A DNA stretch of 64,000 nt, from assembly GCA_903936645.1 (NCBI GenBank), contig CAIZWI010000183.1:5835-69834 (forward strand), written 5' to 3'. Shown one piece after another: positions 1,579 through 19,261 of the stretch. The position numbers were made by a program, and so were the translations under genes. Numbering within the stretch: the stretch's first letter is position 1; the number at the start of each line of letters is the position of its first letter. Source of the DNA: an uncultured Verrucomicrobia subdivision 3 bacterium (GTDB lineage Bacteria > Verrucomicrobiota > Verrucomicrobiia > Limisphaerales > UBA11358). The notes under the pieces were generated by a model. It was not told the DNA's origin and did no database searches. It saw nothing but the letters and a program-made list of their open reading frames with translations.

Positions 1579-4500
1579 GTGTCCCGCTCAGAGGAACCAA
1601 AGTTACAACCAGGCAAGGCATCGATTGTGCCGGCCATACCGGATCACGAAGTCCTTTGCCAAATTGGCGCGGGCGCGTATGGCGAGGTCTGGATGGCCCG
1701 GAATGCCATCGGCATGCTGCGGGCGGTCAAGCTGGTCTGGCGCAGTAACTTTAAAAGTGAGCGCCCCTATGAGCGGGAGTTTTCGGGCATGCTCAAATTC
1801 GAGCCGCTCTCCCGTTCCCACGAGGGGTTTGTGGATATTCTACAAATCGGCCGGAATAATCAGGCTGGCTATTTTTACTATGTCATGGAACTGGCCGATG
1901 ATGCCAGCCTGCCAGCCGCCCAGACCGCACCCGGCTCCAGTACGCAATTCGCCCAGCCCGGCGACACCACCCGGCTCCGGCGGGATTATCGTCCGCGCAC
2001 CTTGAGTTCCGAGGTCCGGGAGGCCGGCCGGCTGTCGCCCACTGATTGCATCCGCTATTTTCTCACCCTCGCCAACGCCCTGGATGCCCTGCATCGGGCC
2101 GGGTTGATTCACCGGGATATCAAACCCAGCAACATCATCATCGTCGGCGGGGTGGCCAAGCTGGCGGACATCGGGTTGGTGACGGCGGTGGATTCGGAAC
2201 GAAGTTTTGTGGGGACGGAGGGCTTCATTCCACCCGAGGGGCCTGGGACCCCCCAAGCGGACATCTATTCGCTCGGCAAAGTGCTGTACGAAGTGGCCAC
2301 CGGGAAGGACCGGATGGAATTTCCCTCCCTGCCTTGCGACCCGCTGACTGGTCGCACGGATGAGGAACTACTTGAATTGAATGCCGTGCTCACCCGGGCC
2401 TGTCTGCCGGACGCGCGCGAACGCTACCAAACGGCGGCGCAAATGCATGCGGATCTGGCCCTGTTGCTGAGTGGGCGCTCCGTGAAGCAAATGCGCGCGG
2501 TGCAACGGCAGTTGCGCCTGGCCTGGCGGGCGGGCCAGGCGGCCATGCTCCTGGCGCTGGTGGGCTTCGTCCTTGCCTTTTTTAATCTCAGGCAGACACG
2601 GATTGAAAAGGAGAATTTGCGGCGCTCCGAGGAATTGCGCCACCAGCGGGAGGCGGCACTGGTGGAGGCCAATCTGGCCCGTGCGAGCGCCGAGCGGTTG
2701 AGCGGCCAGGTGGGCCGGCGGCAGGCCGCGTTGACCGCCCTGACTCAAGCGGCGGAACTAGCTGGTGCCACGGTGGCTTTGCGCAGCGAGGCAGTGGCCT
2801 CCCTGGCGCTCACCGATTTGTCTCCCGAACCCGAAATCCCCGGCCCGGAGGTCGTGAGCACCGTGCAACATGCCTTGTCCCCGGATTTATCGCTCCGGGC
2901 GCTGACCACCACCAATGGCGACCTCCTGCTGCTGCGCGCGAGCGATAACGCCCAAATCGGTCGGCTGCCCGGCGATGGTCGGCTCGCCAATTGGGTCGGC
3001 CCCTTCAGTCCGGACGGGCGTCTGCTGGCCGTTTATAATGGATTTAAAGAGGTGGTGGTGCGGCGGGTGGCGGATGGTGGGGAGCTCTTGCACGTGCCGC
3101 ATGAGGCGGCCTGGGATTCCCGGTCGGATCCCGGCTGGTGGGTGGCGCGAGGCTTTAGTCCCGATAGCCGTTATTTTGCCGTGGCTCACGGGGATGCGCG
3201 GCTGAGCATTCACGACCTTGCCGCGGGCGGCATTCGCGAATTCACCCTGCCAAACGATGTCTACACCCTGGCTTGGCGGCCCGACGGGCATACCCTTGCG
3301 CTGGGCACCCACACGGTTACCAATCAAATCGTCCTGCTGGACACAATTTCCGGCCAGTGGCAGACCGTCAATCTGCCGGTGGCGCGCAAGGTGGTGGCAC
3401 TGGCGTGGGATCCCCGCGGCTTGCATTTGGCCGTCGGTGCCGGGGACACCCGCATTTACTTGTTGTCCGCCGCGCGCACCAACACAGTCTGGCGGGTTTT
3501 GCAAGGCCACCAGCAGAACGTCATCGGCATGGCATTTCATCCGGGCGGTCGGCTGCTGGTTTCCAGCAGTTCAGATAACACCACCCGGTTGTGGGATGCC
3601 ACCGCCGGACGCGAATTGGCCGAATTGCCTCGCTGGGGATGGGATTTTATATTTAGTGCCGATGGCCGCCACTTGAGTTTTTATGACGCTGAATCCGGGG
3701 CCCTCATACGTTTTACCCTCATCGATCACGTGGTGAGCCGGGAAATTCAAAACGGGTCGGACGAGAATCTCAATCAAGTGGTACTGGCTCCGGATAGTTC
3801 GTGGGTGGGGCTGGCCGGGGAAAGCGGGCTGCGGTTTTTTGACACCCAGCAAGGACGATTGCTGGCCACCCTGCCCGGTGAGACGGCGGGGGCCGTGCTT
3901 GTGAAAGGACCGGCGACCGGCGAATTTACCCTGCTCGTTGCCGGTGGGGACCACCTGAATCAGCGGCAGATTCACCAGCGCGGACCCGGGCAATGGCAAT
4001 TTGGCCCACCAGCCAGTTTGCCCGCCAGCGGCATTGGTGAGTTGGTGGATTCCATGGGGGGGGCCACTTATGGTTACCTAAGCCCCGGTTCGGGCATGGT
4101 GGTGGGCTCAACCGCGGCAGCTCCGCGGCTGATGGATGACTCGGTCCCCATCCGGCGGATGGTGTTGAGTCCGGATGGCCGGTTGGCAGCGGCCAAGGGA
4201 TTTCTCTCCAGTGGCAAAAGAGTTCGATCCTTGATCGTCTGGGACACTTCGACGGGAAAAATCATCTGGCATCAAGTTTCGCATTGGCGGGGGCCGCTCG
4301 TCTTTGCTCCGGACAGCCGGCGGCTGGCCGTCAGTTGCCAGGATGGCGTGAGTGTCTGGGATGTTCCATCCAACCGCCTTTGCTGGCAGGTGCCCAAGCC
4401 CGGGGATGCCAATTCGCTGGACTGCCTGGCCTGGTCCCCCGATGGGCGCATGCTGGCCACGACGTGCTCCATGTTTCAAACGGCGCTCATGGATGCCGAG

Positions 4501-4743
4501 ACTGGTGCCATCATAACCCGGGTGGAATATCCCCATCGCAGTCTGATTACTTCGCTGAATTTCAGTCCAGATTCCGGGTTGCTCGCCGTGGGATGTGAAT
4601 CCGGCGGAGTCCTAATCTGGAATTTGCGCGATTTGCGCCGTGAACTGGCGGCTTTAAAACTGGACTGGGATCATCCGCCAGTGGCCGCAACGGCCACCTT
4701 GCCGGGTGGGGTGCAAATCCAAATGGCGGCCGGTGGGCCTTGA
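1579..4743 (+). CDS. Membrane-spanning Ser/Thr protein kinase with C-terminal WD40 beta-propeller repeats
   Basis: Kinase motifs: G-loop GAGAYGEVW, catalytic loop HRDIKPSNIII, DFG-like DIG, GTEGFIPPE. One TM segment (AAMLLALVGFVLAFF) is followed by a coiled-coil-like stretch. Several WD40 units are present, e.g. GHQQNVIGMAFHPGGRLLVSSSSDNTTRLWD. The GTG start at 1579 is uncertain. Confidence 0.9.
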   Translation: MSRSEEPKLQPGKASIVPAIPDHEVLCQIGAGAYGEVWMARNAIGMLRAVKLVWRSNFKSERPYEREFSGMLKFEPLSRSHEGFVDILQIGRNNQAGYFYYVMELADDASLPAAQTAPGSSTQFAQPGDTTRLRRDYRPRTLSSEVREAGRLSPTDCIRYFLTLANALDALHRAGLIHRDIKPSNIIIVGGVAKLADIGLVTAVDSERSFVGTEGFIPPEGPGTPQADIYSLGKVLYEVATGKDRMEFPSLPCDPLTGRTDEELLELNAVLTRACLPDARERYQTAAQMHADLALLLSGRSVKQMRAVQRQLRLAWRAGQAAMLLALVGFVLAFFNLRQTRIEKENLRRSEELRHQREAALVEANLARASAERLSGQVGRRQAALTALTQAAELAGATVALRSEAVASLALTDLSPEPEIPGPEVVSTVQHALSPDLSLRALTTTNGDLLLLRASDNAQIGRLPGDGRLANWVGPFSPDGRLLAVYNGFKEVVVRRVADGGELLHVPHEAAWDSRSDPGWWVARGFSPDSRYFAVAHGDARLSIHDLAAGGIREFTLPNDVYTLAWRPDGHTLALGTHTVTNQIVLLDTISGQWQTVNLPVARKVVALAWDPRGLHLAVGAGDTRIYLLSAARTNTVWRVLQGHQQNVIGMAFHPGGRLLVSSSSDNTTRLWDATAGRELAELPRWGWDFIFSADGRHLSFYDAESGALIRFTLIDHVVSREIQNGSDENLNQVVLAPDSSWVGLAGESGLRFFDTQQGRLLATLPGETAGAVLVKGPATGEFTLLVAGGDHLNQRQIHQRGPGQWQFGPPASLPASGIGELVDSMGGATYGYLSPGSGMVVGSTAAAPRLMDDSVPIRRMVLSPDGRLAAAKGFLSSGKRVRSLIVWDTSTGKIIWHQVSHWRGPLVFAPDSRRLAVSCQDGVSVWDVPSNRLCWQVPKPGDANSLDCLAWSPDGRMLATTCSMFQTALMDAETGAIITRVEYPHRSLITSLNFSPDSGLLAVGCESGGVLIWNLRDLRRELAALKLDWDHPPVAATATLPGGVQIQMAAGGP

Positions 4744-4753
4744 AGGCGCGCCC

Positions 4754-5413
4754 TCACAACATCTCTTTTTCCAGCCGGCCCACCTCTTTTTTGAGCAAGG
4801 CACTTACCCGGTGCTTGGCCAGGTATACGGTCATGATGCTCACGCCCAAAGCCCGGGCCACGGCGGCGCCGGACTGGCCGCGCACCACATACATTTCAAA
4901 CATCTGAAATTGCTCCGGTCGCACCTGCGTGCGCACGCGGCCCAGGGCGGCATCCGCCAGCTGGGTGCGCCAGGCCTCATCCCACACCGCCTCCGGGGCA
5001 GAGGCATTGGCCTCGTTCTGCGTATTAATTTCCTCCGCCACCTGGGTGTCGTCGGGGTTCAATTTGCCCACCTCCCGGGCCCGGTAACGCTTGCGCAGTT
5101 GATCTGCCACCCGACGCCGGGTAATAAGCAGCAGCCAGCTTTTGAAGGAACCCCGGGCCGGATCGTAGCGAAAATTTTTAAACTCATGGGCCACGGAGAT
5201 GAGGGTTTCCTGCACGACTTCCTGGGCCTCGGCGTCCCCCAGACCGGACTTGCTGGCAAAGGCATAAATGAGCCGCCAATAAGTATCAAAGAACTCCTGC
5301 CACGAATCCTGGTTGTCCCATTGCTTCAACCGGGTCAGCAGGCTCCGGCGTGTCGGGGCCAAATCCATTGGCAGTGGCTCATTCATTTCCAGAGAATTCG
5401 CCCGAAACACCAA
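4754..5413 (-). CDS. ECF-type RNA polymerase sigma-70 family factor
   Basis: Region 2 (ETLISVAHEFKNFRYDPARGSFKSWLLLITRRRVADQLRKR) and region 4 HTH (QFQMFEMYVVRGQSGAAVARALGVSIMTVYLAKHRV). Its stop lies 10 nt from the kinase stop (convergent). Its start faces the large operon (divergent). Confidence 0.9.
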   Translation of the reverse strand: MVFRANSLEMNEPLPMDLAPTRRSLLTRLKQWDNQDSWQEFFDTYWRLIYAFASKSGLGDAEAQEVVQETLISVAHEFKNFRYDPARGSFKSWLLLITRRRVADQLRKRYRAREVGKLNPDDTQVAEEINTQNEANASAPEAVWDEAWRTQLADAALGRVRTQVRPEQFQMFEMYVVRGQSGAAVARALGVSIMTVYLAKHRVSALLKKEVGRLEKEML

Positions 5414-5445
5414 AATCTTTCAAGATATATTTACTGCCTGGCGCG

Positions 5446-5472
5446 CTGACCGGGAAATTCCCCAAGGGTCAG
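5446..5472. promoter_or_regulatory. Inverted repeat in the divergent sigma/operon promoter region
   Basis: CTGACC-N15-GGTCAG, with a nested palindrome GGGAAATTCCC at 5452-5462. It lies between the sigma start (5413) and the operon start (5584/5599). The structure is certain; the function is not established. Confidence 0.3.
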
Positions 5473-5598
5473 AATAAATTCTTCACTTATTTTGAAAGGT
5501 TTTTGCCCGGCCGGCGAATTCTCCCGATATCTGGTAAAAATCAGGCCAGAGTTGCCAGCCCCAGCGTTGGATTAAATGATTAATTGCGCACAAATTTT

Positions 5599-8370
5599 AT
5601 GATCTTGAAATCATTATGCAGCAGTCGCCCAGGCGGCAGATGGATTGCCGGTCTGGTGGCGGTAATGCTGGCGGCGGGCGTGGTTTCCGGCCAGGCCCAA
5701 TGGTTGACCCAGACCAATGTCCTCAAGCCGGGCTGGACGGCTGTTTACTTGAACGTGGATGCCTCCAGTCAAACGCTCGACAGCCTCGTGGGTTTCAATC
5801 CCGCCTGTCCCATTGACCAAATCTGGTTTTGGAAAACACTACCCAGCACGGCCCAGTACATCAGCACGCCGGCAAGTCCCCTGGCTGGCAGCAGTGAATG
5901 GCTCGCCTATTACCGCCCGGGTGCCGGCTCGGTAAGCACTTTTTTCTCCCTGGCGCCCAATACCGCCTACCTCGTGCATAATTCCGCCAGTACAAACTTT
6001 ACCTGGAAGGTGCAGGGCCAGCCCGTGGCACCGCGGTTTATTTGGGACAACACCGGCCTTAATTTCATTGGCTTTTCCACCCCAGCCGCCAGCCCGCCCA
6101 CCTTTCAAAATTTTTTGGCCCCGGCCCCGCTCCTCGCCAGTGGTGTGCAAATTTTTCAATACGCGGGTGGTCCTTTTGGCCCGCTGAACCCCGCCCCGGT
6201 ATTCTCCCTTTACACCACGCCCGTGACCCGCGGCCAGGCATTTTGGTTGAGCGACACTAACCTCAATAATACTTATTTTGGGCCTTTCACCATTACTTTG
6301 CCCACGTCCGGTGGAATCAATTATGGGGCGAATGTGGGGCAGGCAACACTGCATTTGTTGAACGTGGCCTCCAATGCCATCCAGATTTCCTTGCGTCTGC
6401 TGCCCTCGGAAGCGCCGCCCTATGGGCAGACCCCCATCATCGGTCCACCGCCCCTGCTGGTGGAGGGTGCGTTGAACTCTTCGAATCTCACCTATGGATA
6501 TACCGCGCTCGCCACCAGCAGCTCGGCTGGCGCGACCAACTTGTTTACCTGGACGCTGGCTCCCGGTGGACGGCCGGGCTCGGACGTCGCCGTGGTGCTC
6601 GGCGTCAATCGATTTGCCCTCACAAACTCCCCCGGCGCTTTTTACGCGGGCATTTTGCAGTTTACGGATTCCCTCGGTTTGTCCGAGGTAAATGTGCCCG
6701 TCTCGGCCACCGCCGCCAACAACGCCGGTTTGTGGGTGGGCAATGCGAGCGTCTCGCAGGTGGGCAGCTACCTCAAGAGTTACGCGACCAACGCGGATGG
6801 TTCTTATCTGCTCAGCGCGGTCACCAACCAGGTGTATGCCACGAATGCCCTGCCGTTCCTCACCACCAACGTAGTGATTAATAATTTTATCACCACCAAC
6901 GTCGCGATTAACTATTTCAACGTTACCAATACTGTGGTGAATACCTTCACCACCAACCGGGTGGCCATTGTTACCAATGGCTGGTTGGTTGTCACGAATC
7001 TCGCGATCAACACCTATGTGCTGACCAATCAAATCATCACCACCACCCCGACCAACCTGTATTTTGACGGCACCGCCATTGTCTGGCTGAGTTCGTTCTC
7101 GACTAACTTCTATCGCTCCACCTACGCCCTGACCAACCTCTTGGTGGCCACCAATCAAGTTGCTGCGGTTACCACCAACCGCACGCCCGTGGCGGTCACA
7201 AACCTCGCCTTTAATTTCGTATCCATTACCAACCAGGTCGTCACCAATGGCCCGTTTTTGGGCCCGGTCACGAATCTGGCCTTCAGTTTTCAGCGTTTCA
7301 CCAACTCGTTTGTGACGACCAATCTGGGCTATGTGCTGCTGGGCACGAATCTGACGGCCCTCGTCACGGCCACTAATTATCTGAGTGTCACCAATTATGC
7401 CCTCACGAATCTCACACTCAACGCCTACAGCACCACCAACCTGGTGGTCACCAACTCAGCGCTGGCGATCATCACCAATGGGCCGGCGGAAATTGTCGTG
7501 AACCCCCTGATCAATAATTACACCGTCTTTGGCAATTTGAGCCTGGCCTATAACACCAACGCCTTTGTGTTTAGCAATAATTTCGTTCTGATCTCCGGTG
7601 CCACCAATTATCTCGGCAGCACCACCAACCAGCTGGTGGCAAGCACCACGGTCACCAACAGCTCGGCCGGGACCAACTATGCAGTTTCCATTTTGACCAT
7701 TTCCACCAATGCCGCCTATCTGGTTGTCACCAACCAGTTGGTCAGCTCCTACAGCAACTATGTTGTCACTGGCATCAACACCAACCTGGGCGCGGTGCCC
7801 AACCCTTACCCCCTCTTCCTGATTGTGTTCAACGACGGCACGAATTCCTCCCTCCTGCAGCGCGTGTATTATGGTTTGCGACAGGACACCAACCTGGTCA
7901 TCGCCACCACCGAAAGCGCCCTTGATGCCTCTCATTTGGACAGCGCCCGGCGCATCTCCGCCGCGCATCTGCCGTGGACCGCTGCGAATAGCCCGATTGC
8001 CTTTACCGGCCAGCTTGGCCTGGGCGGCACGCTCACCGCCACTTTCGCGGAGGCCTATGACGACCAGCCCGCCAACCCTTTCCTCCACACTTATCATCCG
8101 GATCACAATAATCTGGACCTCACCAAGAGCCCGCCCCAGGAATTGCCGGTGGGCAGCCAGTCCTTCAATATTACCCGGCAAATCACCCTTGCGGTCGCCC
8201 CCAACACCACGGATTTTCTGAGCCTCACCAAAGGCAACACCAGTCTCGCCGGTGCTTACCAGGAAACCATTACCCTCACCGGTTTGGGCGGGGCCACCCG
8301 CACGTTTAAGACCGCCGGCACCTTTTCCCTTACGCGCGTCAGCTCCATTGCCACCCTGACCACCCAATAA
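5599..8370 (+). CDS. Exported 923-aa protein with a long Thr-Asn-rich beta-repeat region (operon gene 1)
   Basis: Signal-peptide-like start MILKSLCSSRPGGRWIAGLVAVMLAAGVVSGQA. The ORF is also open from TTG 5584. It has a central TN-dipeptide-rich region and a C-terminal motif NPFLHTYHPDHNNLD. I recognise no family. The antisense 439-aa ORF is judged a shadow. Confidence 0.8.
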   Translation: MILKSLCSSRPGGRWIAGLVAVMLAAGVVSGQAQWLTQTNVLKPGWTAVYLNVDASSQTLDSLVGFNPACPIDQIWFWKTLPSTAQYISTPASPLAGSSEWLAYYRPGAGSVSTFFSLAPNTAYLVHNSASTNFTWKVQGQPVAPRFIWDNTGLNFIGFSTPAASPPTFQNFLAPAPLLASGVQIFQYAGGPFGPLNPAPVFSLYTTPVTRGQAFWLSDTNLNNTYFGPFTITLPTSGGINYGANVGQATLHLLNVASNAIQISLRLLPSEAPPYGQTPIIGPPPLLVEGALNSSNLTYGYTALATSSSAGATNLFTWTLAPGGRPGSDVAVVLGVNRFALTNSPGAFYAGILQFTDSLGLSEVNVPVSATAANNAGLWVGNASVSQVGSYLKSYATNADGSYLLSAVTNQVYATNALPFLTTNVVINNFITTNVAINYFNVTNTVVNTFTTNRVAIVTNGWLVVTNLAINTYVLTNQIITTTPTNLYFDGTAIVWLSSFSTNFYRSTYALTNLLVATNQVAAVTTNRTPVAVTNLAFNFVSITNQVVTNGPFLGPVTNLAFSFQRFTNSFVTTNLGYVLLGTNLTALVTATNYLSVTNYALTNLTLNAYSTTNLVVTNSALAIITNGPAEIVVNPLINNYTVFGNLSLAYNTNAFVFSNNFVLISGATNYLGSTTNQLVASTTVTNSSAGTNYAVSILTISTNAAYLVVTNQLVSSYSNYVVTGINTNLGAVPNPYPLFLIVFNDGTNSSLLQRVYYGLRQDTNLVIATTESALDASHLDSARRISAAHLPWTAANSPIAFTGQLGLGGTLTATFAEAYDDQPANPFLHTYHPDHNNLDLTKSPPQELPVGSQSFNITRQITLAVAPNTTDFLSLTKGNTSLAGAYQETITLTGLGGATRTFKTAGTFSLTRVSSIATLTTQ
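6820..7790 (+). repeat. Degenerate coding repeat: hydrophobic beta-strand-like segments punctuated by Thr-Asn
   Basis: About 35 TN dipeptides by manual count in ~323 aa, e.g. LTTNVVINNFITTNVAINYFNVTNTVVNTFTTNRVAIVTNGWLVVTNLAINTYVLTN. At nucleotide level, ACCACCAAC / GTCACCAAC recur. Confidence 0.8.
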
Positions 8371-8406
8371 ATTTTAATTGAATAACCAACCCCTGCAAAC
8401 CTTGCC

Positions 8407-10383
8407 ATGAAAATCCAAACGCCCCTCCTGTTCACCCTCGTGCGCCGCTGCCTCTTGCCGGTGCTGGCTTTTGCCGCGAGCGCCACCTGCGGCCACGCCA
8501 CCACTTACAATCCGCCCCAGCTCATGGCCTACCAGGGCTACCTCACCGATGCCAGTGGCAACGCCTTGGGCAGCACCAACACGGGGCCGAAAAATTATAA
8601 CGTGGTCTTCCGCATTTGGGATAACCAGGCCGGTGGCACCATCAGTGGCACCGATGAACTCTACGCCGAGCAGCAAACCGTTACCGTAAACAACGGTTAC
8701 TTCAGCGTCTTGCTCGGCCAGGGCAGCCCTTACGCCACTGAGCCCCACACCAACCAACTTTCCGGTCTGTTCACCGGCACCACACCCAATACCCTCTATG
8801 TGGAAATGACCGTGTTGGGAATTGGGATCTCCGGCGCCAATATCACCATCGCGCCCCGGTTGCAACTGCTCACCTCGGCCTATTCCTTCCTCTCCGCCAA
8901 TGCGGTCAACGCGGTTAATGCGAATACCGCCGTCAGCGCCGCCAGTTTGTTGGTGCCAAACAGTGTTTCCAACCCCAACAATGTGCCCGCGGTGACGGTC
9001 ACCCCGGCTGGGAATGTGGGCATCGGCACCAACAACCCCACCGTCCCCTTGCAGGTGGCGGGGGCGATTGGGGCAGGCTCGCTTAATTTGTCCAGCTCCA
9101 GTGCGAGCCCCTTGCTGGCCTTGCAGAATCCGGTCACCGACCCTGCCGGCTTCTGGGGCTTTTATTACGGACAGGGCGGTAGTAACAGCTTGAGCCTGAA
9201 TTATTCCAATGGTGTCAACTCGGCCGCGGCCTTGACGCTCGCCACCAATGGGAATGTGGGCATTGGCGGGGTCTTCACTCCGCAGTCTCCGCTCGACGTA
9301 GAAACTACCAATTCTTTAGCTGCCACGATCGCTGGTAACAATGCCAGCGGAACCTGGCTTTCCTTGGGGAGCGATTATGGCTATGGCAATTACTGGAACA
9401 TGATCGCCAAGCCCGGCTTGAGTTTGAACATGGATCAGCTCGTGATCAGCTGGGGCAACACGCCTGCCAATGAAACCACCGATGTTCTAACGCTGCAAAA
9501 TGGCGGTAATGGGGTGGGTTCGATCGGCGGCCGGGTCGGCATCAACACCACCGCACCGCAGGCGCCGCTGGATGTGGAAGGCACGGCTTTAACCCAATAC
9601 GAAAGTTACTTTTCCTATTTTCAAACATCCGGCACCACCTTGTACCTCGGCGCTGGCAATACCATCCGGCAAAACACGGTGGCGGGTAATCAATACGTGA
9701 GTATTTTCACCAGCGGCAACATCGGCGCTACCGTTTATTATGCCTTTTCTGATGCCCGCATCAAAAATATTTCCGGCATTTCTTCCAGCGCAACGGATCT
9801 GGCGACGCTGCGGGGCATTCAAGTGACCGATTTTACTTATAAAGACGTGGTGGCCAAAGGCAGCAGCCCCGTGAAAAAAGTGGTCGCCCAACAGGTGGAA
9901 AAAGTTTTCCCCCAGGCTGTTAGCCAGGGCAAGGGAGTGATTCCGGATATTTATCGGCCGGCTTCGGTTCACGCTGGCTGGGTCCAAGTCTCGACGGATC
10001 TCAAGCCGGGTGAGCGCGTGCGTTTGATCGGCCAGGACAACGTCTCCGCGGTGTATGATGTGCTCTCCGTCACGAAAGATGCCTTCCAGGTCAAGCTGCC
10101 GGAAACCTTGGACCACGTCTTCGTTTATGGCCGCGAGGTGAATGATTTCCGCACGGTCGACTACGACGCCATTGCCATGCTCAATGTCAGTGCCACCCAG
10201 GAACTGGCCAATCGTTTGGACAAATTAGAGGCCCGGGCCAGCCAGGTCGCCGCTTTGGAGCGGGAAGTGGGTGATTTGAAAAAGCTTGTCACCCAATTGG
10301 CGGAAGCCGCCAAGACTTCCAAATTGACCGCGCAGCGCGCCGTTGATGCCTCCGCGGTCACCACCGCCGGCCTGGATCGCTAA
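8407..10383 (+). CDS. Tail-fibre-like exported protein with C-terminal S74 intramolecular-chaperone (endosialidase chaperone) domain (operon gene 2)
   Basis: Signal peptide at the N-terminus. Three GNVGIGT-type motifs (GNVGIGTNNPTVPLQV, GNVGIGGVFTPQSPLDV, GRVGINTTAPQAPLDV). Autocleavage-type motif YAFSDARIKNISG, with the Ser codon at 9748-9750, followed by LRGIQVTDFTYKD...KKVVAQQVEKVFPQAV and a terminal coiled coil. Confidence 0.85.
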   Translation: MKIQTPLLFTLVRRCLLPVLAFAASATCGHATTYNPPQLMAYQGYLTDASGNALGSTNTGPKNYNVVFRIWDNQAGGTISGTDELYAEQQTVTVNNGYFSVLLGQGSPYATEPHTNQLSGLFTGTTPNTLYVEMTVLGIGISGANITIAPRLQLLTSAYSFLSANAVNAVNANTAVSAASLLVPNSVSNPNNVPAVTVTPAGNVGIGTNNPTVPLQVAGAIGAGSLNLSSSSASPLLALQNPVTDPAGFWGFYYGQGGSNSLSLNYSNGVNSAAALTLATNGNVGIGGVFTPQSPLDVETTNSLAATIAGNNASGTWLSLGSDYGYGNYWNMIAKPGLSLNMDQLVISWGNTPANETTDVLTLQNGGNGVGSIGGRVGINTTAPQAPLDVEGTALTQYESYFSYFQTSGTTLYLGAGNTIRQNTVAGNQYVSIFTSGNIGATVYYAFSDARIKNISGISSSATDLATLRGIQVTDFTYKDVVAKGSSPVKKVVAQQVEKVFPQAVSQGKGVIPDIYRPASVHAGWVQVSTDLKPGERVRLIGQDNVSAVYDVLSVTKDAFQVKLPETLDHVFVYGREVNDFRTVDYDAIAMLNVSATQELANRLDKLEARASQVAALEREVGDLKKLVTQLAEAAKTSKLTAQRAVDASAVTTAGLDR

Positions 10384-10417
10384 ACCAACCTTGGGCAACC
10401 GCCCGTCGTCAATTCTT

Positions 10418-13400
10418 ATGAAACAAAAGCTTTGCCTGCTGTGCTGCCTGCTGGCCCTGTGGACCGGCGCCGGGCGGCTGCTGGGCCAACAATTAATCGG
10501 GATTCAGTACAGTCAAACGGCCATCACCTATAACTTGCAAGCGATGGGTGGGGTGCCCATTTCGGCGGTGGTCAACCACCCGCCTGGCTCCAACGGCAAG
10601 TTGCCTCCCACCGACGCCCTGGGATTTTATATCCCGGCCACCACCAATCAGTTTGCCGGCCTGCTGGGCTTCAGTGGGCTCACGGCACCCACCAATTGGG
10701 TGATTTTGAATGGCAATGCTGCCTTGCTCAACGGGAACACCGCCTTCTCCGCCCCGGTGGCGCAGGCCATGGGCCTGCCGGTTGGATTCAATAATGGAAC
10801 AGTGGCCTTGGTGCTCCAAAATGTGCATATTGGGACGCCCTTTGTCGCGGCTCCCGTTTCTTATAACTTTGGCAGTATCATCACCCCGCCGGCCAACGAC
10901 GTTCATGGCCTTGTCCTGACCAACCCGCCGTCATCCTACTGGCAGAGCGTGCCCTGGTCGGCCAGCAATCATACGAATGACCCTTACTATTACAGTCCCA
11001 ATGCCGGGGTGGTGTTTGCCACCCAGCCCGGCCAGGTGAATATCACCTGGATCACCGCCGGGTCCTATACCGATGTCAGCCCGCTTAATTATGTGAATCC
11101 TGGCGGTGCCGCTTATCCCAGTTTTTACACCAATGGGGCTTATATCTACTTGCTGTACACGTCCACCTACATTGTTTCGGGCACCCCGGTGAAGCCGCCG
11201 CAAAAAATGTATTGGACCGAAAATTCCTTCATCAAATTGGGGCACCCTGTCTCGGTGGCCAACGGTCGCGTCACCTCCGTGCATGTCCAATATAACACCG
11301 ATTTTCCGGCGAAGGTGGCCACGCCCTACCAGGATCCCAATTACGCCGCCCCGGCTCCGGCCACCAATACATTTCAGGAATACCGGACCCTTTGGTTTGA
11401 CTCGACCCTCAATGCCATCCGGGCTTATAACGCCCAGGGCCGGGTGTTCGTGGAACTGCTGGGCGCCCCCATCCCCGGGGCGAATGCCAGCCAGTATCTT
11501 GGCTTTGAAATTGTCGACGTGAGCCAGGCTCCCGTAGCTGCGAATGTTACCATTCCGCTGGGCAACCCACTGACGCCTTACCAGGATGGTTTCGAAAATG
11601 CGAGCCTTACGCCCGCACCGATTCAAAATACTGTCGGCACCCAATTCTATTATCTCCAGCCGGGCACTCCGCCCACGCTGTACGCCGATAAATTTACCGC
11701 CGACCCGAATGATTTGCAGGTTTACTGGCTTAGTCCAGGTGTCGGTGGCTTGCTTTGGCCGAACCTGTTTGTCGATTACAATCTCGTCTGGCCGGCGGAT
11801 CCTGCGCAATATAGTTATTACCTCCGTCCCCTAGTGGCCACTCCGGCGCAGGCCGCCCTGACCGCCGTGCTCTTGGCTGGCAGCGAATCCCCCGCGTTGG
11901 ATTATCAGGATCCGCTGGACCAAACGCGCGGATTTATGTCGGCCGCCTCCCAGTTCTATACTTGGCTCAGCCCGGCTTACCCGGCGCATCGCTCCCTGCT
12001 GCGGTTTAATTCTGGGAATCAAGTGCGGTTTGAGCGCGTTTTCTCCTACCTGGGCCAGGCGCTTCAAACCAACGCTCTCTTTGCCGGCTCCGTGGCCACC
12101 AATCTGACGGCTTGGAATCCGTCCAACAATACCCTTACCAATTACGCCAGTGGCTTCAACCCTCCTTACGCCACCAACCTCCCCGCTTATGTGGGTCAGG
12201 CCCTGACCGATCCGCCGGGCGAAATCGGTTCTACCAATGGCACCTATGGCGATTATTGGGCGGGGTATATTAATACGAACCTGAATAATTCCCCGATGCT
12301 GTCCAGCTTGAACACCAACTTGGGCAACTCTTATGACCCCTATACCTATGTGGACCCGTTTGTGAGCGGCTTTGCCTCCGCCAATCAGGGTGCCATCATT
12401 CCCGTGAATGCCATCCCCGGGCACAACCTCCTGGAGGTTTGGTGGTTTCGGCGTAATGCCGCTGACCCGGTCCTCGGCTTCCAACCCGTCTATTGGCCCT
12501 CGATCATCGCCGATTACACCATCCAATGGCCGGCCAATGCGCCGCAAATCGTGATGGCGGACAATGCCGGCAGCCATCAACTGCCCAGCCCCCAGTCTTC
12601 GGGAAATATTTATTCTCAGCCCGATCCCACCCAGCCCGGCTTCAATCCCAACGAGGAGCACGCCCTCATGCTGGCCGGCACCGCCTACGCGTTACGGGAC
12701 GATCTGAATAATACCAATCCCGGAAGTCAGTTTACGTCGGTGCCTTATGCCCTGATTGGGTATACCAATGTGGATGGCCGTCCCGCCATGCTGGCCTATC
12801 AGGTACGGCGCGAGGCTCCGGAGGCAGGTAAACTGTTTGATTACATCGTTAATGCCGGCACCCAGTTGCAGGCACCCATGCCGCTGCCGTTGATGGCCCT
12901 GCCGCTTGCGCCCAACACCAATTATCCGACCGGTGTGACAAATTTTGATACCGCCCCGCAAGCGGCGGGCGGTGATCTGCCGTCGGGCTGGAATCCCACC
13001 ACCGATCCCTCCGGCCCATTCTCGCTTTATCAGGGTTTTACTTTTCAGGACCGCAAACATAATTTTTGGGTCTATCGTGGTCCTCATGCCGGCCTGCCTG
13101 TGCTGGCTGCGGGCGCCTACAATACCAATAGCGGTAATTTTGACCCCCTCCCTGCGGGTACCGCTGTCGTCGGGTCCAATTATAATTACTACATTCATCT
13201 CTCTCGTTTGCTGCCTTCCCTGACGGTGGGAGCCTCGAATCTGCCGCCCGGTCTGGCCATCCTGGAAAATGTTACAAACGGACTCAGCATCAGTGGCATT
13301 CCGACCATGCCCGGCACTTACACGGCGGGGATAACCATCGCGGACACGGATGGCAGTTCGGTGAGCCTGCCACTGTCGCTCACCATCGTTGCCACCGGCT

Positions 13401-16400
13401 CGGTGGTCGCGCTGGGGCCCCTCGCCATCACCAGCACCAATGCCTATTCCGGTGCGGTGGTGACGTATAACCGCCCCCCTGCCTTGGCCGCACCGCCCAC
13501 CCCTGCCAATAGCTTCACGATGCGCTTTTATTACAAAACGCAGGCTGGCTTTGACTGGCCCGGCGTGGCTAATCCGCCTCCGGTGGGGTCCATCGTACCC
13601 TACCTGTTGCCTGTGCAAAACGGTGCACCCATCGGCGATGCCACCAGCAGCAACACCCCCAGCTTAAATATTGTTTACCGGCCCGTCTGGCCTGGTTTGG
13701 GGGCCGACGGCCAGTCTCCGTTGCCCACCTTGCAATTGGGCCAGACGCTGACCACGGCCATTAATGGCCTCGCCGCCGTGCGCGGTCAGGACAGCGTGGA
13801 AGTCCTCTATCAGCAATCGATCGCCACCAATGCAGTTCTCGCTAATACGGCGGCCAGTGTGGTGCTCTTCGACCCCACGGTGCAAAAAACCTGCACCCTG
13901 AGCGCCGTTCCTTATGGGATGCTAACTGATACTGCCAACGGGCTGGTTTACTTTCCCAACCTTCCGCCGAATTTAATCAGCCGCTTTTGGTATGATCCGA
14001 ATCAGCAGAAATTGGTGCTTGCCGGCAAGTTTGTCCCCGATCCGGTCAATGGCAATTATGTGATGTTAAATGTCCTTAGCGCCAATGACCTTGCAGCCTT
14101 GTACAATTTATATCCCTCCCCGAACACAACGGAAAACTACCACGCCTGGGCCTCGCAGGTGGATAGTTTGATGGCCCCGGTTTACACCAAGGCCGAGAAT
14201 CCGGCGGTGCCGGGCAGCTATGTCATCAATCCCAAGCTAACCGTGAACCGCCGCGCCGCGGATCTGGTGGAAGTCACCAACTCCGACACGGCGGTGGATT
14301 CGTATGCCATGAGCGCCACTGGTCCGGGTCAGGGCTACATTAGCTATGTGGTCGCCAACGGCCATGATCCCAAGTACACCGGCGACCCCATCACAGTTTA
14401 CATTGCCCGGGTCGGTGCGCCTTTGTTCGCCGGCAATCTGGTGGTGGCCAACATGGCCAACGCGAGTCCATTCAGCCAGCTGGTCACCTTCCAGCACACG
14501 GCCGATCTGGCCGGCCGGACCGGTAATTACGCTTATGATTGGCGCATTCAGCCGCCTGTTAATGGTGCGGTACCGCGGGCGGATGAATCCACCTGGACCC
14601 CGCTGCCGCAAACGAGCCCTGGTCCTGTGTTCACGCTGGGAGCCGCCGGTATTCAAGGCCTCAGTGATAATTATATTTCCATGCGTTATGGCTACACCAA
14701 TGCCGCCACCGGAAACATTGTTTGGTCGGCGTGGGTCAACCCCATCCTGGCACAAGGCTGGATCAAACGTGTCACTGAAAACCTGGACCCCATCGCGGGT
14801 GAAACCCAGAATTTGTATAATAACCCCGCCACCACCACGGCCAGCATCATCAGCCTGGCGGGTGCGCGTTGGGATGGCAACGTGCCATTGAATGCGGCCT
14901 CCCTGACCAATAACGGACTGATTCAACTGTATGAAACCGTGCTCAACATTGGCAAATCGCTCAGCATCAATTCCGGGATCAACTATGGCCCGGCCAACCA
15001 GGCCTTGTTGCTCGCGGCCGGTTATCTGAACGACTTTTACACGACGCTCGGTAATGCTGCCTGGGCCAATTCGCTTAATCCCACGATTGGTTTTGGCACC
15101 GATAACCAGGCCTACGGTAATATTGCCACCTCGCAATTTGTCTTCGAGGGCCAGGAATCTACCCTGTTGGAGCAAAACCTGGCATTGCTGCGCGGGCGGG
15201 ATGACAGTCTTTCCCCGGGCGTGTCGGTGCCCCCGGTCTATAACCACTTATGGTGGAACTACACCTACGGTTTGGCGGCTGGCCAGGTCATGTACGCTCT
15301 GAATTACAACATCACCGACCAAAACGGCGATGGCGTGGTGAATGCCGCGGATGCCCAGATCATGTATCCCCAAGGCCATGGTGATGCTTATGGGCATTAT
15401 CTCACGGCGCTCATGAACTATTACGAGCTCCTGATGAACCCGAATTTTGATTGGATTCCCCAAAGCCAGGCGGTCACGGTTCTGGGTGCCACTGTGGCGG
15501 TAAATTATCAGGACGAACAAAAATTTGCGGCCACCTCAGCAGCTCTGGCGCGTTCGGGACGACAAGTTTTTGATCTAACCTGGCGGCAGGACTATGTCCC
15601 CGGCACGGCCGGTGGTTGGAATTATTTTGCCAGCAACCATGTGGGGCAATACACCTACATGGACAACCAGGGCAACACCCAGCCAATCACGCGCTACTGG
15701 GGGATGGACCATTGGGCGTCGCGGGTGGGGCAGGGAACGTATTTAAACTGGGTCGTGGGCAACTCCATCCTTCCGCCCAAGGATCTCAACCCAAATGATC
15801 AGGGTATCCAGATTGTTGACCGCACCACCGTGTCCGATCTCCAGGAACTGCCCCAGACGGCTGCTGCGCTCCAAACTGACTTGAATAATGCCAACGCCGG
15901 ATTTACCCCGCTGGGACTGGCCCAGAACGCCATTCCTTTTGACATCAATCCGCAACAGGTGACGGGAGCCAACCCGCAAACCCACTTTGACCAAATTTAC
16001 GACCGCGCGGTGCAAGCCTTGAACAATGCTGTGGTGGCCTTTAATGCCGCCCAGAACGTCACCCAAAATTTGCGCCAGCAACAGAATTCACTCACCGACC
16101 TGCAAGACGCCGCCAATGCCCAGGAACAAGCCTATACCGACCAGTTGATTGAACTGTTTGGCACGCCCTATCCGGACGATATTGGAGCCGGCCAAACTTA
16201 TCCTCAAGGCTACACCGGTCCGGATTTGTTCCATTACATGTATGTCGAAAATCCCGCCACCAATACTTTTGGTGGCCAATTGACGGACCCAACCACCTTT
16301 CAATCCTTTAAGGTGGACATGCAAAAATTGAGTGATGGCTGGCCCACCAATTACCTTTATGATTTTTACAAAATCGTGCCGCAAAAAAACCAGTATTATG

Positions 16401-18343
16401 ATCCAGGATCGGAATATGTCCTATTTAATATCGGTGCGGATGGCTTCAGTAAACCGGCCAGTTGGACCACCCAGCGGAATGCGGTTGGCAGCCTGCAAAC
16501 TGCGGCGGGAGCGGTGAATGTTGCCCAGGATAAACTTCGCGAGGACTTGAGCGGGATCGAGTCTGACAAAGACAGCTTTGATCGCGCCGTCGCCCTGTTT
16601 TACGCCCAAAAAGACACCAATGACCTGACTTTGGCGATCCAGGCGGACAGTACGAAGCAGCAGCAAGATCAAAACCTGGCTCAAGAAGAGGTTGCCATCA
16701 CTACATCTAGTGGTGCCATCGCGACTGGTCTGTTCTCGGATGAAATGGACTTGCTTACCAAGGACGCCCCTTCGACCACCATTCTCGGAACTGCTGTTGG
16801 TGGGGATCAAGTGAAGCTTTTTACAGAGGCTGCGGCCCTTCCGATTAACATACTCAAGGAGACCACAGCTATCACTATTGCCCAGGCTAATGACGAACTC
16901 GCCAACCGAATCAAAAATTTTCAAAACGCCGCCGCCCTGAATACGCAAAAAATTGCCACCAATGCCTACTACACCAGCCTGCAGAATTCCTCGGTAACTC
17001 TCGCCAAACAACTGAGCGACTTGCATGGGAAATTGGGCAATATCCATGCCGACCAGATCGCTCTTAATAATGCCCATGCCAGTTATCAGGCCCTCGTGGC
17101 CAAGGGCAACCGAATTCTAATGGAGCGTCAGACGTTCCGGCAGCACACCGCCGCCAAGGTTCAGGGTTACACCGTGGCAAATTCCGCCTTCCTGGTCTTT
17201 CAGAATGAAGATTTGGAACGGTACAATACGCTCTTCGATCTCGCTGCCAAGTATGCCTGGATGGCTGCCAGCGCTTATGATTACGAGACCGGCCAATTGG
17301 GCACCCCGGCGGGCAAGCGTTACTTGAATCAAATCATCAGTTCCTCCGCCCTCGGCGTAATTCAAAACGGCCAGCCCCAGATCTCCGGCACCACCACCGG
17401 CGACCCCGGTTTGGCCAACGCCCTCGCCGAAATGAAGGCCGACTATGACACCCTCAAAGGCCGCCTCGGCTTTAATAACCCCGATGGCTATGGCACCACT
17501 GTGTCGCTTCGCTCCGAAAACTACCGCATCAATGCTGATTCGACCGGTGATAACAACTGGAAACAGGTGCTCGAACAGGGACTGGTGCCCGACCTGCTGG
17601 CGGACAGCGATGTCAGACGCAATTGCCTGCAAATTGACAATGGCAGTGGTGCGGCAGTGCCGGGGATTGAATTGACCTTCAGCACAACTATTACGGATGG
17701 TCAAAACCTCTTCGGGCAACCCGTCGGACCGGGCGACCACGCCTTCAGCTCCAGTTCCTTCGCCACCAAAATCTTCTCGCTGGGGGTGGATTTGGACGGT
17801 TATGTGGGAATGGACAACCCGGTTTCCAACAGCGGTGCGGGCGGTACGACTCCCGCCGATCCCACCTTGGATCCCAATGGCATGTCAGCCACGCCTTACG
17901 TATATTTGATCCCCTGTGGTGCCGACTCCATGCGCAGTCCGCCGTTGGGGGACACGAGCACGATCCGCACGTGGAATGTGGATGACGTGGCCATTCCGCT
18001 ACCCTTTAACATTGGTGCCTCAGACTTTTCCGACGCACCGTTTTATCAGGCCGCCGATTCGCTCTCCGAACCGCTCTTTGCCGTGCGCAAACACCAGGCT
18101 TTCCGTCCCGTTTCCAGCCTGGCGGCCTTCAACACCAGCATCTACGGGGCCACCGGCGCTTTGCAACCTTCGCAATATACCAACAAACGCCTGATCGGAC
18201 GGTCGGTATGGAACAGCAAATGGAAATTGGTCATTCCGGGGAAAACCCTCCTGGCCGATCCTAACCAGGGCCTGCAACGCTTCATTAATTCCGTGAAGGA
18301 TATTCACTTGTACTTCGTCACCTATTCCTATTCCGGTAATTAA
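10418..18343 (+). CDS. Giant (2641-aa) exported protein with a He_PIG-type Ig unit and a long C-terminal helical hairpin (operon gene 3)
   Basis: Uninterrupted ORF. ATG 10418 gives the signal peptide MKQKLCLLCCLLALWTGAGRLLG. The ORF is open from 10343, but that start overlaps gene 2. Ig unit LPPGLAILENVTNGLSISGIPTMPGTYTAGITIADTDG (~13225-13395). Q/A/N/L-rich helical region ~15990-17300. All antisense ORFs here are arginine/glycine-rich shadows. Confidence 0.85.
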   Translation: MKQKLCLLCCLLALWTGAGRLLGQQLIGIQYSQTAITYNLQAMGGVPISAVVNHPPGSNGKLPPTDALGFYIPATTNQFAGLLGFSGLTAPTNWVILNGNAALLNGNTAFSAPVAQAMGLPVGFNNGTVALVLQNVHIGTPFVAAPVSYNFGSIITPPANDVHGLVLTNPPSSYWQSVPWSASNHTNDPYYYSPNAGVVFATQPGQVNITWITAGSYTDVSPLNYVNPGGAAYPSFYTNGAYIYLLYTSTYIVSGTPVKPPQKMYWTENSFIKLGHPVSVANGRVTSVHVQYNTDFPAKVATPYQDPNYAAPAPATNTFQEYRTLWFDSTLNAIRAYNAQGRVFVELLGAPIPGANASQYLGFEIVDVSQAPVAANVTIPLGNPLTPYQDGFENASLTPAPIQNTVGTQFYYLQPGTPPTLYADKFTADPNDLQVYWLSPGVGGLLWPNLFVDYNLVWPADPAQYSYYLRPLVATPAQAALTAVLLAGSESPALDYQDPLDQTRGFMSAASQFYTWLSPAYPAHRSLLRFNSGNQVRFERVFSYLGQALQTNALFAGSVATNLTAWNPSNNTLTNYASGFNPPYATNLPAYVGQALTDPPGEIGSTNGTYGDYWAGYINTNLNNSPMLSSLNTNLGNSYDPYTYVDPFVSGFASANQGAIIPVNAIPGHNLLEVWWFRRNAADPVLGFQPVYWPSIIADYTIQWPANAPQIVMADNAGSHQLPSPQSSGNIYSQPDPTQPGFNPNEEHALMLAGTAYALRDDLNNTNPGSQFTSVPYALIGYTNVDGRPAMLAYQVRREAPEAGKLFDYIVNAGTQLQAPMPLPLMALPLAPNTNYPTGVTNFDTAPQAAGGDLPSGWNPTTDPSGPFSLYQGFTFQDRKHNFWVYRGPHAGLPVLAAGAYNTNSGNFDPLPAGTAVVGSNYNYYIHLSRLLPSLTVGASNLPPGLAILENVTNGLSISGIPTMPGTYTAGITIADTDGSSVSLPLSLTIVATGSVVALGPLAITSTNAYSGAVVTYNRPPALAAPPTPANSFTMRFYYKTQAGFDWPGVANPPPVGSIVPYLLPVQNGAPIGDATSSNTPSLNIVYRPVWPGLGADGQSPLPTLQLGQTLTTAINGLAAVRGQDSVEVLYQQSIATNAVLANTAASVVLFDPTVQKTCTLSAVPYGMLTDTANGLVYFPNLPPNLISRFWYDPNQQKLVLAGKFVPDPVNGNYVMLNVLSANDLAALYNLYPSPNTTENYHAWASQVDSLMAPVYTKAENPAVPGSYVINPKLTVNRRAADLVEVTNSDTAVDSYAMSATGPGQGYISYVVANGHDPKYTGDPITVYIARVGAPLFAGNLVVANMANASPFSQLVTFQHTADLAGRTGNYAYDWRIQPPVNGAVPRADESTWTPLPQTSPGPVFTLGAAGIQGLSDNYISMRYGYTNAATGNIVWSAWVNPILAQGWIKRVTENLDPIAGETQNLYNNPATTTASIISLAGARWDGNVPLNAASLTNNGLIQLYETVLNIGKSLSINSGINYGPANQALLLAAGYLNDFYTTLGNAAWANSLNPTIGFGTDNQAYGNIATSQFVFEGQESTLLEQNLALLRGRDDSLSPGVSVPPVYNHLWWNYTYGLAAGQVMYALNYNITDQNGDGVVNAADAQIMYPQGHGDAYGHYLTALMNYYELLMNPNFDWIPQSQAVTVLGATVAVNYQDEQKFAATSAALARSGRQVFDLTWRQDYVPGTAGGWNYFASNHVGQYTYMDNQGNTQPITRYWGMDHWASRVGQGTYLNWVVGNSILPPKDLNPNDQGIQIVDRTTVSDLQELPQTAAALQTDLNNANAGFTPLGLAQNAIPFDINPQQVTGANPQTHFDQIYDRAVQALNNAVVAFNAAQNVTQNLRQQQNSLTDLQDAANAQEQAYTDQLIELFGTPYPDDIGAGQTYPQGYTGPDLFHYMYVENPATNTFGGQLTDPTTFQSFKVDMQKLSDGWPTNYLYDFYKIVPQKNQYYDPGSEYVLFNIGADGFSKPASWTTQRNAVGSLQTAAGAVNVAQDKLREDLSGIESDKDSFDRAVALFYAQKDTNDLTLAIQADSTKQQQDQNLAQEEVAITTSSGAIATGLFSDEMDLLTKDAPSTTILGTAVGGDQVKLFTEAAALPINILKETTAITIAQANDELANRIKNFQNAAALNTQKIATNAYYTSLQNSSVTLAKQLSDLHGKLGNIHADQIALNNAHASYQALVAKGNRILMERQTFRQHTAAKVQGYTVANSAFLVFQNEDLERYNTLFDLAAKYAWMAASAYDYETGQLGTPAGKRYLNQIISSSALGVIQNGQPQISGTTTGDPGLANALAEMKADYDTLKGRLGFNNPDGYGTTVSLRSENYRINADSTGDNNWKQVLEQGLVPDLLADSDVRRNCLQIDNGSGAAVPGIELTFSTTITDGQNLFGQPVGPGDHAFSSSSFATKIFSLGVDLDGYVGMDNPVSNSGAGGTTPADPTLDPNGMSATPYVYLIPCGADSMRSPPLGDTSTIRTWNVDDVAIPLPFNIGASDFSDAPFYQAADSLSEPLFAVRKHQAFRPVSSLAAFNTSIYGATGALQPSQYTNKRLIGRSVWNSKWKLVIPGKTLLADPNQGLQRFINSVKDIHLYFVTYSYSGN

Positions 18344-19258: not shown

Positions 19259-19261
19259 TCG

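Follow-up and report, generated by a model that had tools for sequence, protein, structure and literature searches.

A Ser/Thr kinase-linked ECF sigma factor that shares a putative promoter motif with a divergent operon for secreted proteins in a subdivision 3 Verrucomicrobium

Introduction

What controls an extracytoplasmic function (ECF) sigma factor that has no anti-sigma factor beside it, and which genes does it switch on? The question is raised by a locus in a 64,000-nucleotide stretch of DNA from an uncultured Verrucomicrobia subdivision 3 bacterium (contig CAIZWI010000183.1 of assembly GCA_903936645.1, forward-strand positions 5,835 to 69,834; the whole stretch analysed is called the window below). 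Here, an ECF sigma factor gene (4754..5386, minus strand) lies between a convergent gene for a receptor-type Hanks Ser/Thr kinase (1579..4743, plus strand; an open reading frame (ORF) of 1054 aa with a GTG start) and a divergent operon of eight genes for secreted or envelope proteins (5599..23627, plus strand). A preliminary description of the DNA had proposed that the sigma factor is gated by the kinase, with the WD40 ectodomain of the latter as sensor, and that it switches on the operon. ECF sigma factors linked to kinases are a known branch of bacterial signalling that has received little study; among them only two systems from Proteobacteria, both of group ECF43, have been characterised, and both depend on the absence of an acidic motif that the sigma factor of the window retains.

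The sigma factor and the kinase probably form a two-protein transmembrane signalling module of a subdivision-3 (Pedosphaera/Limisphaerales-like) Verrucomicrobium. With moderate confidence, we propose that the kinase gates, by direct phosphorylation, a sigma factor that reads the promoter TGAAAG-N16-CGAAT, and that this sigma factor would thereby both autoregulate its own gene and switch on the 18-kb operon. The system is well supported but fairly ordinary, belonging to the known kinase-linked ECF sigma systems, and it would extend rather than overturn what is known of ECF regulation. Its value lies in the testable regulon which the locus and about 80 relatives provide (two promoters with defined -35 and -10 elements), in the clean case that it makes of a single kinase-domain clade with swappable periplasmic sensors, and in the lead that it gives on the switching of large, uncharacterised secreted fibre and giant-protein cassettes in soil and freshwater Verrucomicrobia.

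The sigma gene and the operon share a promoter motif

A search for a -35/-10 pair common to the sigma gene and the operon had been set beforehand as a check on their joint control, and such a pair was found. The extended sequence TTGAAAGNTTTT-N9-GGCGAATTCTC stands before the sigma gene and before the operon; these divergent copies are its only two occurrences in the window, and 100 shuffles gave 0 matches. The promoter predicted for the sigma gene (5392..5423, minus strand) consists of a -35 element TGAAAG (5422-5417), a 16-nt spacer and a -10 element CGAAT (5400-5396), and that of the operon (5492..5523, plus strand) has the same -35 (5493-5498) and -10 (5515-5519) with a spacer of the same length. 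Both were located by exact match and by position weight matrix (PWM), and TGAAAG-N16-CGAAT occurs in exact form at these two sites only in the 128 kb searched, back to back in the sigma-operon intergenic region. As the sigma-side motif ends 9 nt before the ATG at 5386, the sigma mRNA is predicted to be leaderless or nearly so; the operon-side motif lies 64 nt upstream of a possible TTG start at 5584 and 79 nt upstream of the ATG at 5599. Matches with one mismatch at 39041-39067 and 51049-51075 were rejected: one falls inside a gene, the other is some 470 nt away from the nearest start codon, and their frequency is at the level of chance.

The motif is also found around relatives of the sigma gene. 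Unbiased enumeration of dyads in the 300 nt that precede each of 79 sigma genes returned ATACG-N14-ATCT as the dominant dyad, present in 29 of the 79 regions against a shuffle maximum of 5. This dyad is the reverse complement of TGAAAGAT...CGTAT, and the motif associated with the family is of ECF type, TGAAAG-N16/17-CG(A/T)AT. When a PWM built solely from 51 motif instances in other genomes was applied, the sigma site scored 33.0 bits, the best value in the window, and the operon site 30.2 bits, while the next-best score in the 128 kb searched was 10.0 (background mean -40.6, standard deviation 11.2).

The placement of the motif differs among lineages. At loci of the Limisphaerales/Pedosphaera type, TG(A/C)AAG-N16/17-CGAA(T/C) lies 5-11 nt before the sigma start codon, as at the loci designated L002, L003, L022, L049, L071 and L087, and often recurs after the kinase gene. 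At loci of the Chthoniobacterales type, no motif precedes the sigma gene; a divergent gene for an alpha-2-macroglobulin of about 1955 aa alone carries it, in an orientation facing away from sigma, and since the motif ends 7-8 nt before the ATG, a leaderless mRNA is predicted here too. An autoregulatory motif on the sigma strand was counted in just 12 of the 79 loci. Judging from the position of the motif, the kinase-linked ECF sigma factor of Chthoniobacterales appears to control a periplasmic protease-inhibitor defence; alpha-2-macroglobulin genes with the motif of the sigma family are seen at L034:4002-9906 (minus strand) and at some 35 other loci of the Chthoniobacterales/Udaeobacter type (e.g. 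L019, L030, L040 and L057).

Cumulatively, autoregulation of the sigma gene and control of the operon appear well supported computationally. The motif is assigned to the sigma family by association, and its recognition by this particular sigma factor is presumed on that basis.

The sigma factor retains an acidic core-binding helix and has no anti-sigma neighbour

ORFs, Pfam and NCBIfam bear out the identities of sigma factor and kinase and the convergent layout given in the preliminary description. The sigma protein contains sigma2 and sigma4 domains only, as expected of an ECF (group 4) sigma-70 factor, with matches of 45 bits to PF04542 (Sigma70_r2; cutoff 24) and 65.7 bits to TIGR02937 (sigma70-ECF; cutoff 42.9), and one of 20.4 bits to the region 4 model PF08281 (Sigma70_r4_2), slightly under its cutoff. 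In Pfam and NCBIfam only generic ECF models score above cutoff; TIGR02989, the Rhodopirellula/Verrucomicrobium family (38 bits, cutoff 124.6), and PF07638 (20.5 bits, cutoff 21.1) were rejected. An AlphaFold2 (AF2) model with a predicted local distance difference test (pLDDT) score of 78.9 has sigma2 and sigma4 helical bundles with a disordered linker between them. More than 5,400 database relatives were found at E < 1e-5, and the source labels of the 120 best matches all name Verrucomicrobia.

The homologues are 204-216 aa long and start at the Met of the ATG at 5386, and the conserved promoter falls inside the extension to the TTG at 5413, back to which the ORF is open. The true start is therefore the ATG at 5386, giving a protein of 210 aa, and not 5413 as first annotated; with this start the intergenic region measures about 198-212 nt instead of about 170-185 nt.

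The core-binding helix of region sigma2.2 comprises residues 51-60, D-A-E-A-Q-E-V-V-Q-E (5207..5236, minus strand). In an alignment with Mycobacterium tuberculosis SigE, the DAED of the latter stands opposite E53-A-Q-E56, which leaves the acidic patch in place. Acidic residues occupy position 51 in 99% of 120 homologues, position 53 in 76% and position 56 in all (100%); Q59 and E60 are conserved as well, and Ser or Thr is found at positions 53-56 in at most 9%. The group ECF43, to which the locus had earlier been likened, is on this evidence not a suitable mechanistic analogue.

A second conserved element is the invariant N-terminal motif P11-T-R-R-S-L-L-[ST]-R-L-K21 (5324..5356, minus strand), defined by family alignments and AF2. 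The model has a helix at aa 10-20, and 99% of homologues share T12, S15 and S/T18. It is speculation that this helix is a candidate regulatory or phospho-acceptor site, and equally speculative, by analogy with T106 of EcfK, that the disordered acidic linker around T114 is a candidate phospho-site.

The claim that no anti-sigma gene adjoins the sigma gene was upheld. No anti-sigma-like ORF was found among those of at least 25 aa in 4700-5620, all of which are out-of-frame overlaps without a transmembrane (TM) helix or HxxxCxxC motif. The locus thus differs from a canonical ECF/anti-sigma pair, in which an anti-sigma domain (ASD), zinc-binding anti-sigma (ZAS) or TM protein is co-transcribed; the downstream neighbour of the sigma gene is the convergent kinase gene. 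The two stop codons are separated by just 10 nt (4744..4753), which include the palindrome GGCGCGCC. A terminator scan listed no terminator-like site within this gap, so the kinase and sigma transcripts may overlap as antisense RNAs.

The kinase is a predicted single-pass receptor with WD40 propellers

The kinase has the full set of Hanks-type elements, namely a Gly-rich loop, the VAIK Lys, HRD with its Asn, an Asp at the DFG position, an activation-loop Thr and APE. Its cytoplasmic kinase domain (aa ~23-300; 1645..2478, plus strand) was delimited by AF2 secondary structure and a PF00069 match of 85.6 bits at aa 25-244. In 35 aligned sigma-linked kinases, G30-x-G32-x-x-G35, K51, H178-R-D180, N185, D197-I-G199, T213 and P219-E220 are invariant or at least 90% conserved, and K51, H178-R-D180, N185, D197-I-G and T213 are invariant. 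The Mg-binding motif (residues 197-199) reads DIG instead of DFG in all 35; to judge from the alignment, this invariant DIG may be a signature of the sigma-linked kinase-domain clade.

A Kyte-Doolittle scan found a single TM-grade hydrophobic segment outside the kinase fold, AAMLLALVGFVLAFFNL at aa ~317-338 (2527..2592, plus strand), in agreement with the one helix reported before; the only other hydrophobic window, at aa 186-204, sits within the kinase fold. As read from the sequence, the residues N-terminal of the helix carry a more positive net charge than those that follow it. In the AF2 model (50 homologues, pLDDT 86.8), the TM segment forms part of one long helix (aa 302-374); a short helical stalk extends from there to aa ~409, and continuous beta structure then runs, C-terminal of the TM helix, from aa 413 to 1015. 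WD40 and beta-propeller families of Pfam match aa 527-1020, and the best Foldseek matches of aa 413-1015 in the PDB are two-propeller WD40 proteins (2ymu, Aip1 (1nr0), Utp21 (4nsx) and Gemin5 (5h3s)). Together, Pfam, AF2 and Foldseek thus predict a tandem WD40 double beta-propeller at aa ~413-1015 (2815..4623, plus strand). Because there is a single TM helix and the kinase domain needs ATP, the propellers are predicted to lie outside the cytoplasm, in the periplasm. The kinase is accordingly modelled as a predicted type-II membrane receptor with extracytoplasmic WD40 propellers as its presumed sensor.

Sigma and kinase genes are paired across Verrucomicrobiota

To examine this pairing in other genomes, we took 80 loci from a genome scan, searched them by tblastn with the proteins of the window and reconstructed the kinase ORFs; flanking sequence allowed 75 of them to be judged. 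A homologous kinase gene lies directly beside the sigma gene in 63 of the 75, immediately downstream on the same strand in 60 and convergent in 3, the window included. At six loci the kinase gene is 3-9 kb away, and at the other six there is none. This distribution bears out the view of the two proteins as a pair: by synteny, the pairing is far beyond chance, and the two form a conserved module.

The kinase domains beside the sigma relatives are 50-68% identical, and the C-terminal parts are 26% identical or unmatched. In a Pfam scan, every one of the 35 sigma-linked kinases matched Pkinase; 20 matched FGE-sulfatase (PEGA: 16) and 11 matched WD40. Sequence comparison thus points to a single dedicated, apparently active clade of kinase domains that is coupled to one family of sigma factors and whose periplasmic sensors are seemingly interchangeable. 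At L002:10655-16815 (minus strand), beside a sigma gene whose product is 79% identical, two tandem WD40 kinase genes (1013 and 1014 aa) are convergent on sigma, which suggests two sensory inputs to one sigma factor. At L089:939-6718 (plus strand; sigma 82% identical), a cluster of the type VI secretion system (T6SS) type, with VgrG, DUF2169 and a PAAR-like toxin-immunity set, lies directly upstream of the sigma gene.

The operon encodes predicted secreted proteins, and parts of it recur beside some related sigma genes

The operon comprises eight tightly packed plus-strand genes, from 5584 (TTG) or 5599 (ATG) to 23627, as delimited by ORFs and gaps and annotated with Pfam, NCBIfam and PHROGs. 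Signal-peptide-like N-termini on 8 of 8 products agree with its earlier designation as a surface operon, and "surface or secreted operon" is a fair description. The first gene, op1 (5599-8370, plus strand), encodes 923 aa with TN-rich repeats and without known domains. It is followed by op2 (8407-10383, plus strand), a tail-fibre-like protein of 658 aa that carries a Peptidase_S74 intramolecular chaperone domain at its C-terminus and whose N-terminus weakly matches a Bdellovibrio MAT fibre, and by op3 (10343-18343, plus strand), of about 2650 aa and without known domains. The remaining genes encode, in order, a 298-aa protein, a MORN protein, an FG-GAP protein (op6), a Big_9/cadherin-like protein and a P-domain protein. 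The C-terminus of this last product (22854-23627, plus strand) has VPEP, a hydrophobic stretch and basic residues. Together these resemble a PEP-CTERM sorting signal, and the protein would then be anchored at the surface with the help of an exosortase.

Other Verrucomicrobiota have the op1-op2-op3 trio as well, as a conserved set, and some of its homologues lie next to relatives of the sigma gene. At L087/L088 (sigma 83% identical), an op1 homologue is again divergent from sigma, and the motif occurs three times, before sigma, before the gene of a downstream 863-aa secreted protein and before the op1 homologue; the operon-side element is nearly identical to that of the window, in contrast to the diverged middle part of the intergenic region. 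At L027 and L071, where sigma is only about 52% identical and the kinases carry FGE-sulfatase domains, a second motif after the kinase gene precedes a Kelch gene followed by op1 and op2 homologues, directly at L071 and at a distance of about 1.5 kb at L027. The first ~100-125 aa of op6 (19916-20284, plus strand) are 44-45% identical to the N-termini of these Kelch-propeller proteins (L071:14529-16700 and L027:14274-16286), an identity which suggests a common N-terminal module with interchangeable propeller heads. An N-terminal module common to op2 and op6 was rejected (BLASTP E = 2.5, not significant).

Comparison with known kinase-linked ECF systems

The literature lists eight ECF groups as linked to Ser/Thr kinases (STK): ECF43, ECF59-62, ECF217, ECF267 and ECF283. 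Those of bacteria of the Planctomycetes-Verrucomicrobia-Chlamydiae (PVC) superphylum are ECF59-62 (ECF59-ECF62 were formerly ECFSTK1-4) and ECF217, and not ECF43, which the preliminary description had named for these bacteria. In ECF43, uncharged residues stand in for the acidic DAED of sigma2.2, and phosphorylation of a Thr enables the sigma factor to bind the beta' clamp again (PMC8999054, PMC13147305); for ECF59 and the original ECF60, a review reports a Ser in the acidic position (PMC8103513). Direct phosphorylation of ECF sigma factors by adjacent Hanks kinases has been demonstrated, including at a linker site in EcfK (PMC8999054, PMC13147305).

The locus can be compared with two ECF43 pairs, EcfP-PknT (Vibrio parahaemolyticus) and EcfK-PknS (Xanthomonas citri). 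There, as in the window, an ECF sigma factor without an anti-sigma factor is encoded beside a receptor Ser/Thr kinase. As is predicted for the window kinase, that receptor crosses the membrane once and has repeats in its periplasmic domain (TPR in PknS); and as is proposed for the window, the sigma factor controls a neighbouring envelope or surface gene cluster (T6SS for EcfK). The window shares the adjacent kinase and the missing anti-sigma factor, but not the uncharged sigma2.2 with its phospho-acceptor Thr: the DxxD of ECF43 is changed to uncharged residues (consensus QTTA, also STTA), whereas the window sigma factor keeps ExxE. Further differences are a WD40 instead of a TPR sensor, the convergent genes and the Verrucomicrobiota host. 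Direct phosphorylation of sigma was demonstrated for the ECF43 pairs; for the window kinase, an action on sigma is proposed on the basis of synteny. With the acidic sigma2.2 patch kept, the phospho-switch cannot be the charge completion of ECF43/EcfP.

The Ser-for-acidic replacement of ECF59 and the original ECF60 is likewise absent from the window sigma factor and its 120 homologues. According to another review, the STK-linked groups other than ECF43 keep a DAED-like motif, and their mechanism is called unknown (PMC8999054). With such groups (e.g. ECF61, ECF62 and ECF217), the window shares all three of the kinase neighbour, the lack of an anti-sigma factor and the acidic sigma2.2, a resemblance in kind only. 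ECF59-ECF62, ECF217, ECF267 and ECF283 comprise sigma factors of the PVC superphylum with a Ser/Thr kinase neighbour, as in the window; the named references of these groups come from Planctomycetes and Actinobacteria, and Verrucomicrobia are under-sampled in that classification.

PVC bacteria commonly have TM kinases that bear arrays of WD40 repeats in the periplasm (PMC11032199). The membrane kinases of Planctomycetota in that survey have the architecture predicted for the window kinase, with a cytoplasmic Pkinase domain, a single TM helix and C-terminal periplasmic WD40 repeats; the second sensor often met with, both there and among relatives of the window kinase, is FGE-sulfatase. The survey links its kinases to no cognate ECF sigma factors, whereas the clade of the window kinase is syntenic with one sigma family and has an invariant DIG.

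The promoters, too, are of a familiar kind. Classical autoregulated ECF promoters have the same two-block -35/-10 structure with a 16-17-nt spacer, a CGxA core in the -10 and a copy before the sigma gene; the SigW-type promoter of Bacillus subtilis is TGAAAC-N16-CGTA. They differ from those described here, in which no more than 5-11 nt separate the -10 from the start codon of the sigma or alpha-2-macroglobulin gene, as leaderless transcripts would require, and no anti-sigma factor is co-transcribed.

We tentatively put forward, as a doubtful possibility, that the Verrucomicrobiota-wide sigma family represents a second mechanistic class of kinase-controlled ECF sigma factors, in which the acidic core-binding helix is kept and switching would occur by phosphorylation elsewhere (invariant N-terminal helix or acidic linker) or by reversible sequestration on the kinase, with leaderless promoters and swappable sensors (WD40, FGE-sulfatase/PEGA). 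If true, one conserved kinase domain would deploy differing envelope defence or adhesion cassettes, alpha-2-macroglobulin in some lineages and the fibre and giant-protein apparatus in the window.

Proposed pathway and alternatives

In the pathway that we favour, a periplasmic or envelope cue would be bound by the WD40 propellers, and its binding would activate the kinase, which would then phosphorylate the sigma factor directly and render it competent. The sigma factor would fire its own promoter, in a positive autoregulation probably involving a leaderless mRNA, and that of the operon, leading to expression of the eight-gene, 18-kb set of secreted fibre-like, giant and repeat proteins. We infer kinase gating and WD40 sensing from synteny and analogy, as we infer the phospho-site and the nature of the signal.

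Several observations weigh against this pathway or parts of it. The acidic sigma2.2 motif of the window sigma factor is intact, so the protein might bind core RNA polymerase without phosphorylation, and one close relative (L090, sigma 80% identical) has no kinase gene within 10 kb. The PWM scan found no copy of the motif at the window kinase gene, which, being convergent, would stand outside the autoregulatory loop. A weak sigma70-like match at 5552-5580 (plus strand), between the ECF-type promoter and the op1 start, could give basal, sigma-independent expression of the operon. The sigma genes of L002 (79% identical) and L003 (73%) are not adjacent to the op cassette, and in four other genomes op1-op2-op3 cassettes occur with no sigma or kinase gene adjacent; the motif is absent upstream of the three of these cassettes that were scanned for it, all but that of P0129. 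Lastly, the first dyad search was unbiased, but the regular expression and the PWM were refined after the window had been seen.

On balance, the link between sigma and operon is lineage-specific and not family-wide, as far as these genomes indicate. The earlier claim that the sigma factor switches on the operon is well supported computationally for the window, where the promoter is shared and the motif follows the sigma family through dozens of genomes, but cannot be made a rule for the whole family. Given this mixed conservation, the sigma-kinase family acts like a portable module of sensor and regulator that has been joined to one set of envelope genes or another, depending on the lineage.

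The alternative that survives best, which we nevertheless hold to be unlikely, leaves the step from sigma to operon unchanged and lets the kinase act indirectly, through an unlinked anti-sigma factor or other regulator, or lets its cytoplasmic part tether the sigma factor at the membrane in the manner of an anti-sigma factor. A sigma factor that has kept the acidic sigma2.2 lost in ECF43, ECF59 and ECF60 is not obviously inactive by default, the review's verdict on the groups with a DAED-like motif leaves room for such a scheme, and there is a precedent for kinase action on anti-sigma factors in mycobacterial PknB, which phosphorylates RseA and RshA (PMC8999054). However, the window locus has no anti-sigma-like gene, Pfam detected no anti-sigma domain in the kinase, and the sigma-kinase gaps of 10-640 nt at 60 related loci leave little room for an anti-sigma gene (ORFs in these gaps were not examined). 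Direct contact would be the simplest explanation for so close a one-to-one association of the sigma factor with the kinase domain.

Far less probable is that TGAAAG-N16-CGAAT is read by another ECF sigma factor encoded elsewhere, with the local sigma gene as a member of its regulon. The motif, tied to the local sigma factor by association, resembles generic ECF promoters such as the SigW type, and many ECF paralogues in the genome are probable, given the >5,400 family members in the database and the several loci that come from the same metagenome-assembled genome (MAG). Yet it travels with the sigma family across about 50% divergence and is never more than a few hundred bases away from the sigma and kinase genes, it fronts targets as unrelated as alpha-2-macroglobulin, a PMP-like protein, the Kelch/op1/op2 operon and the 863-aa protein, and the window holds no other sigma gene.

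The weakest alternative, to which we give slightly less credence still, is that sigma gene and operon are neighbours by accident, with a housekeeping promoter driving the operon and the second motif having arisen by local duplication of the sigma promoter without being functional: the sigma70-like match, the cassettes lacking sigma and motif and the unusually long identity between the two copies would fit it, but that match is weak (TTGCCA-17-AATGAT, 9/12; four such matches in 4.4 kb against 1.2 expected), the operon-side copy is kept in L087/L088 despite divergence of the mid-intergenic region, and an independent clade (L027, L071) likewise has the motif before an operon containing op1 and op2.

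Genomic surroundings

No paralogue of the sigma factor or the kinase is encoded elsewhere in the 64 kb of the window, and Rfam gave no match in the intergenic region or the 5' untranslated region. The sigma protein is 99% identical to that of L004 (contig CAIQWB010000132.1, from a MAG of an uncultured Verrucomicrobia subdivision 3 bacterium), after which the nearest relatives carry the labels Pedosphaera or Limisphaerales. Beyond the operon, a tRNA gene (23682-23755, plus strand; Rfam RF00005, 68.9 bits) lies 55 nt past the last gene and is followed by a convergent gene for a GH35 beta-galactosidase (23766-26543, minus strand).

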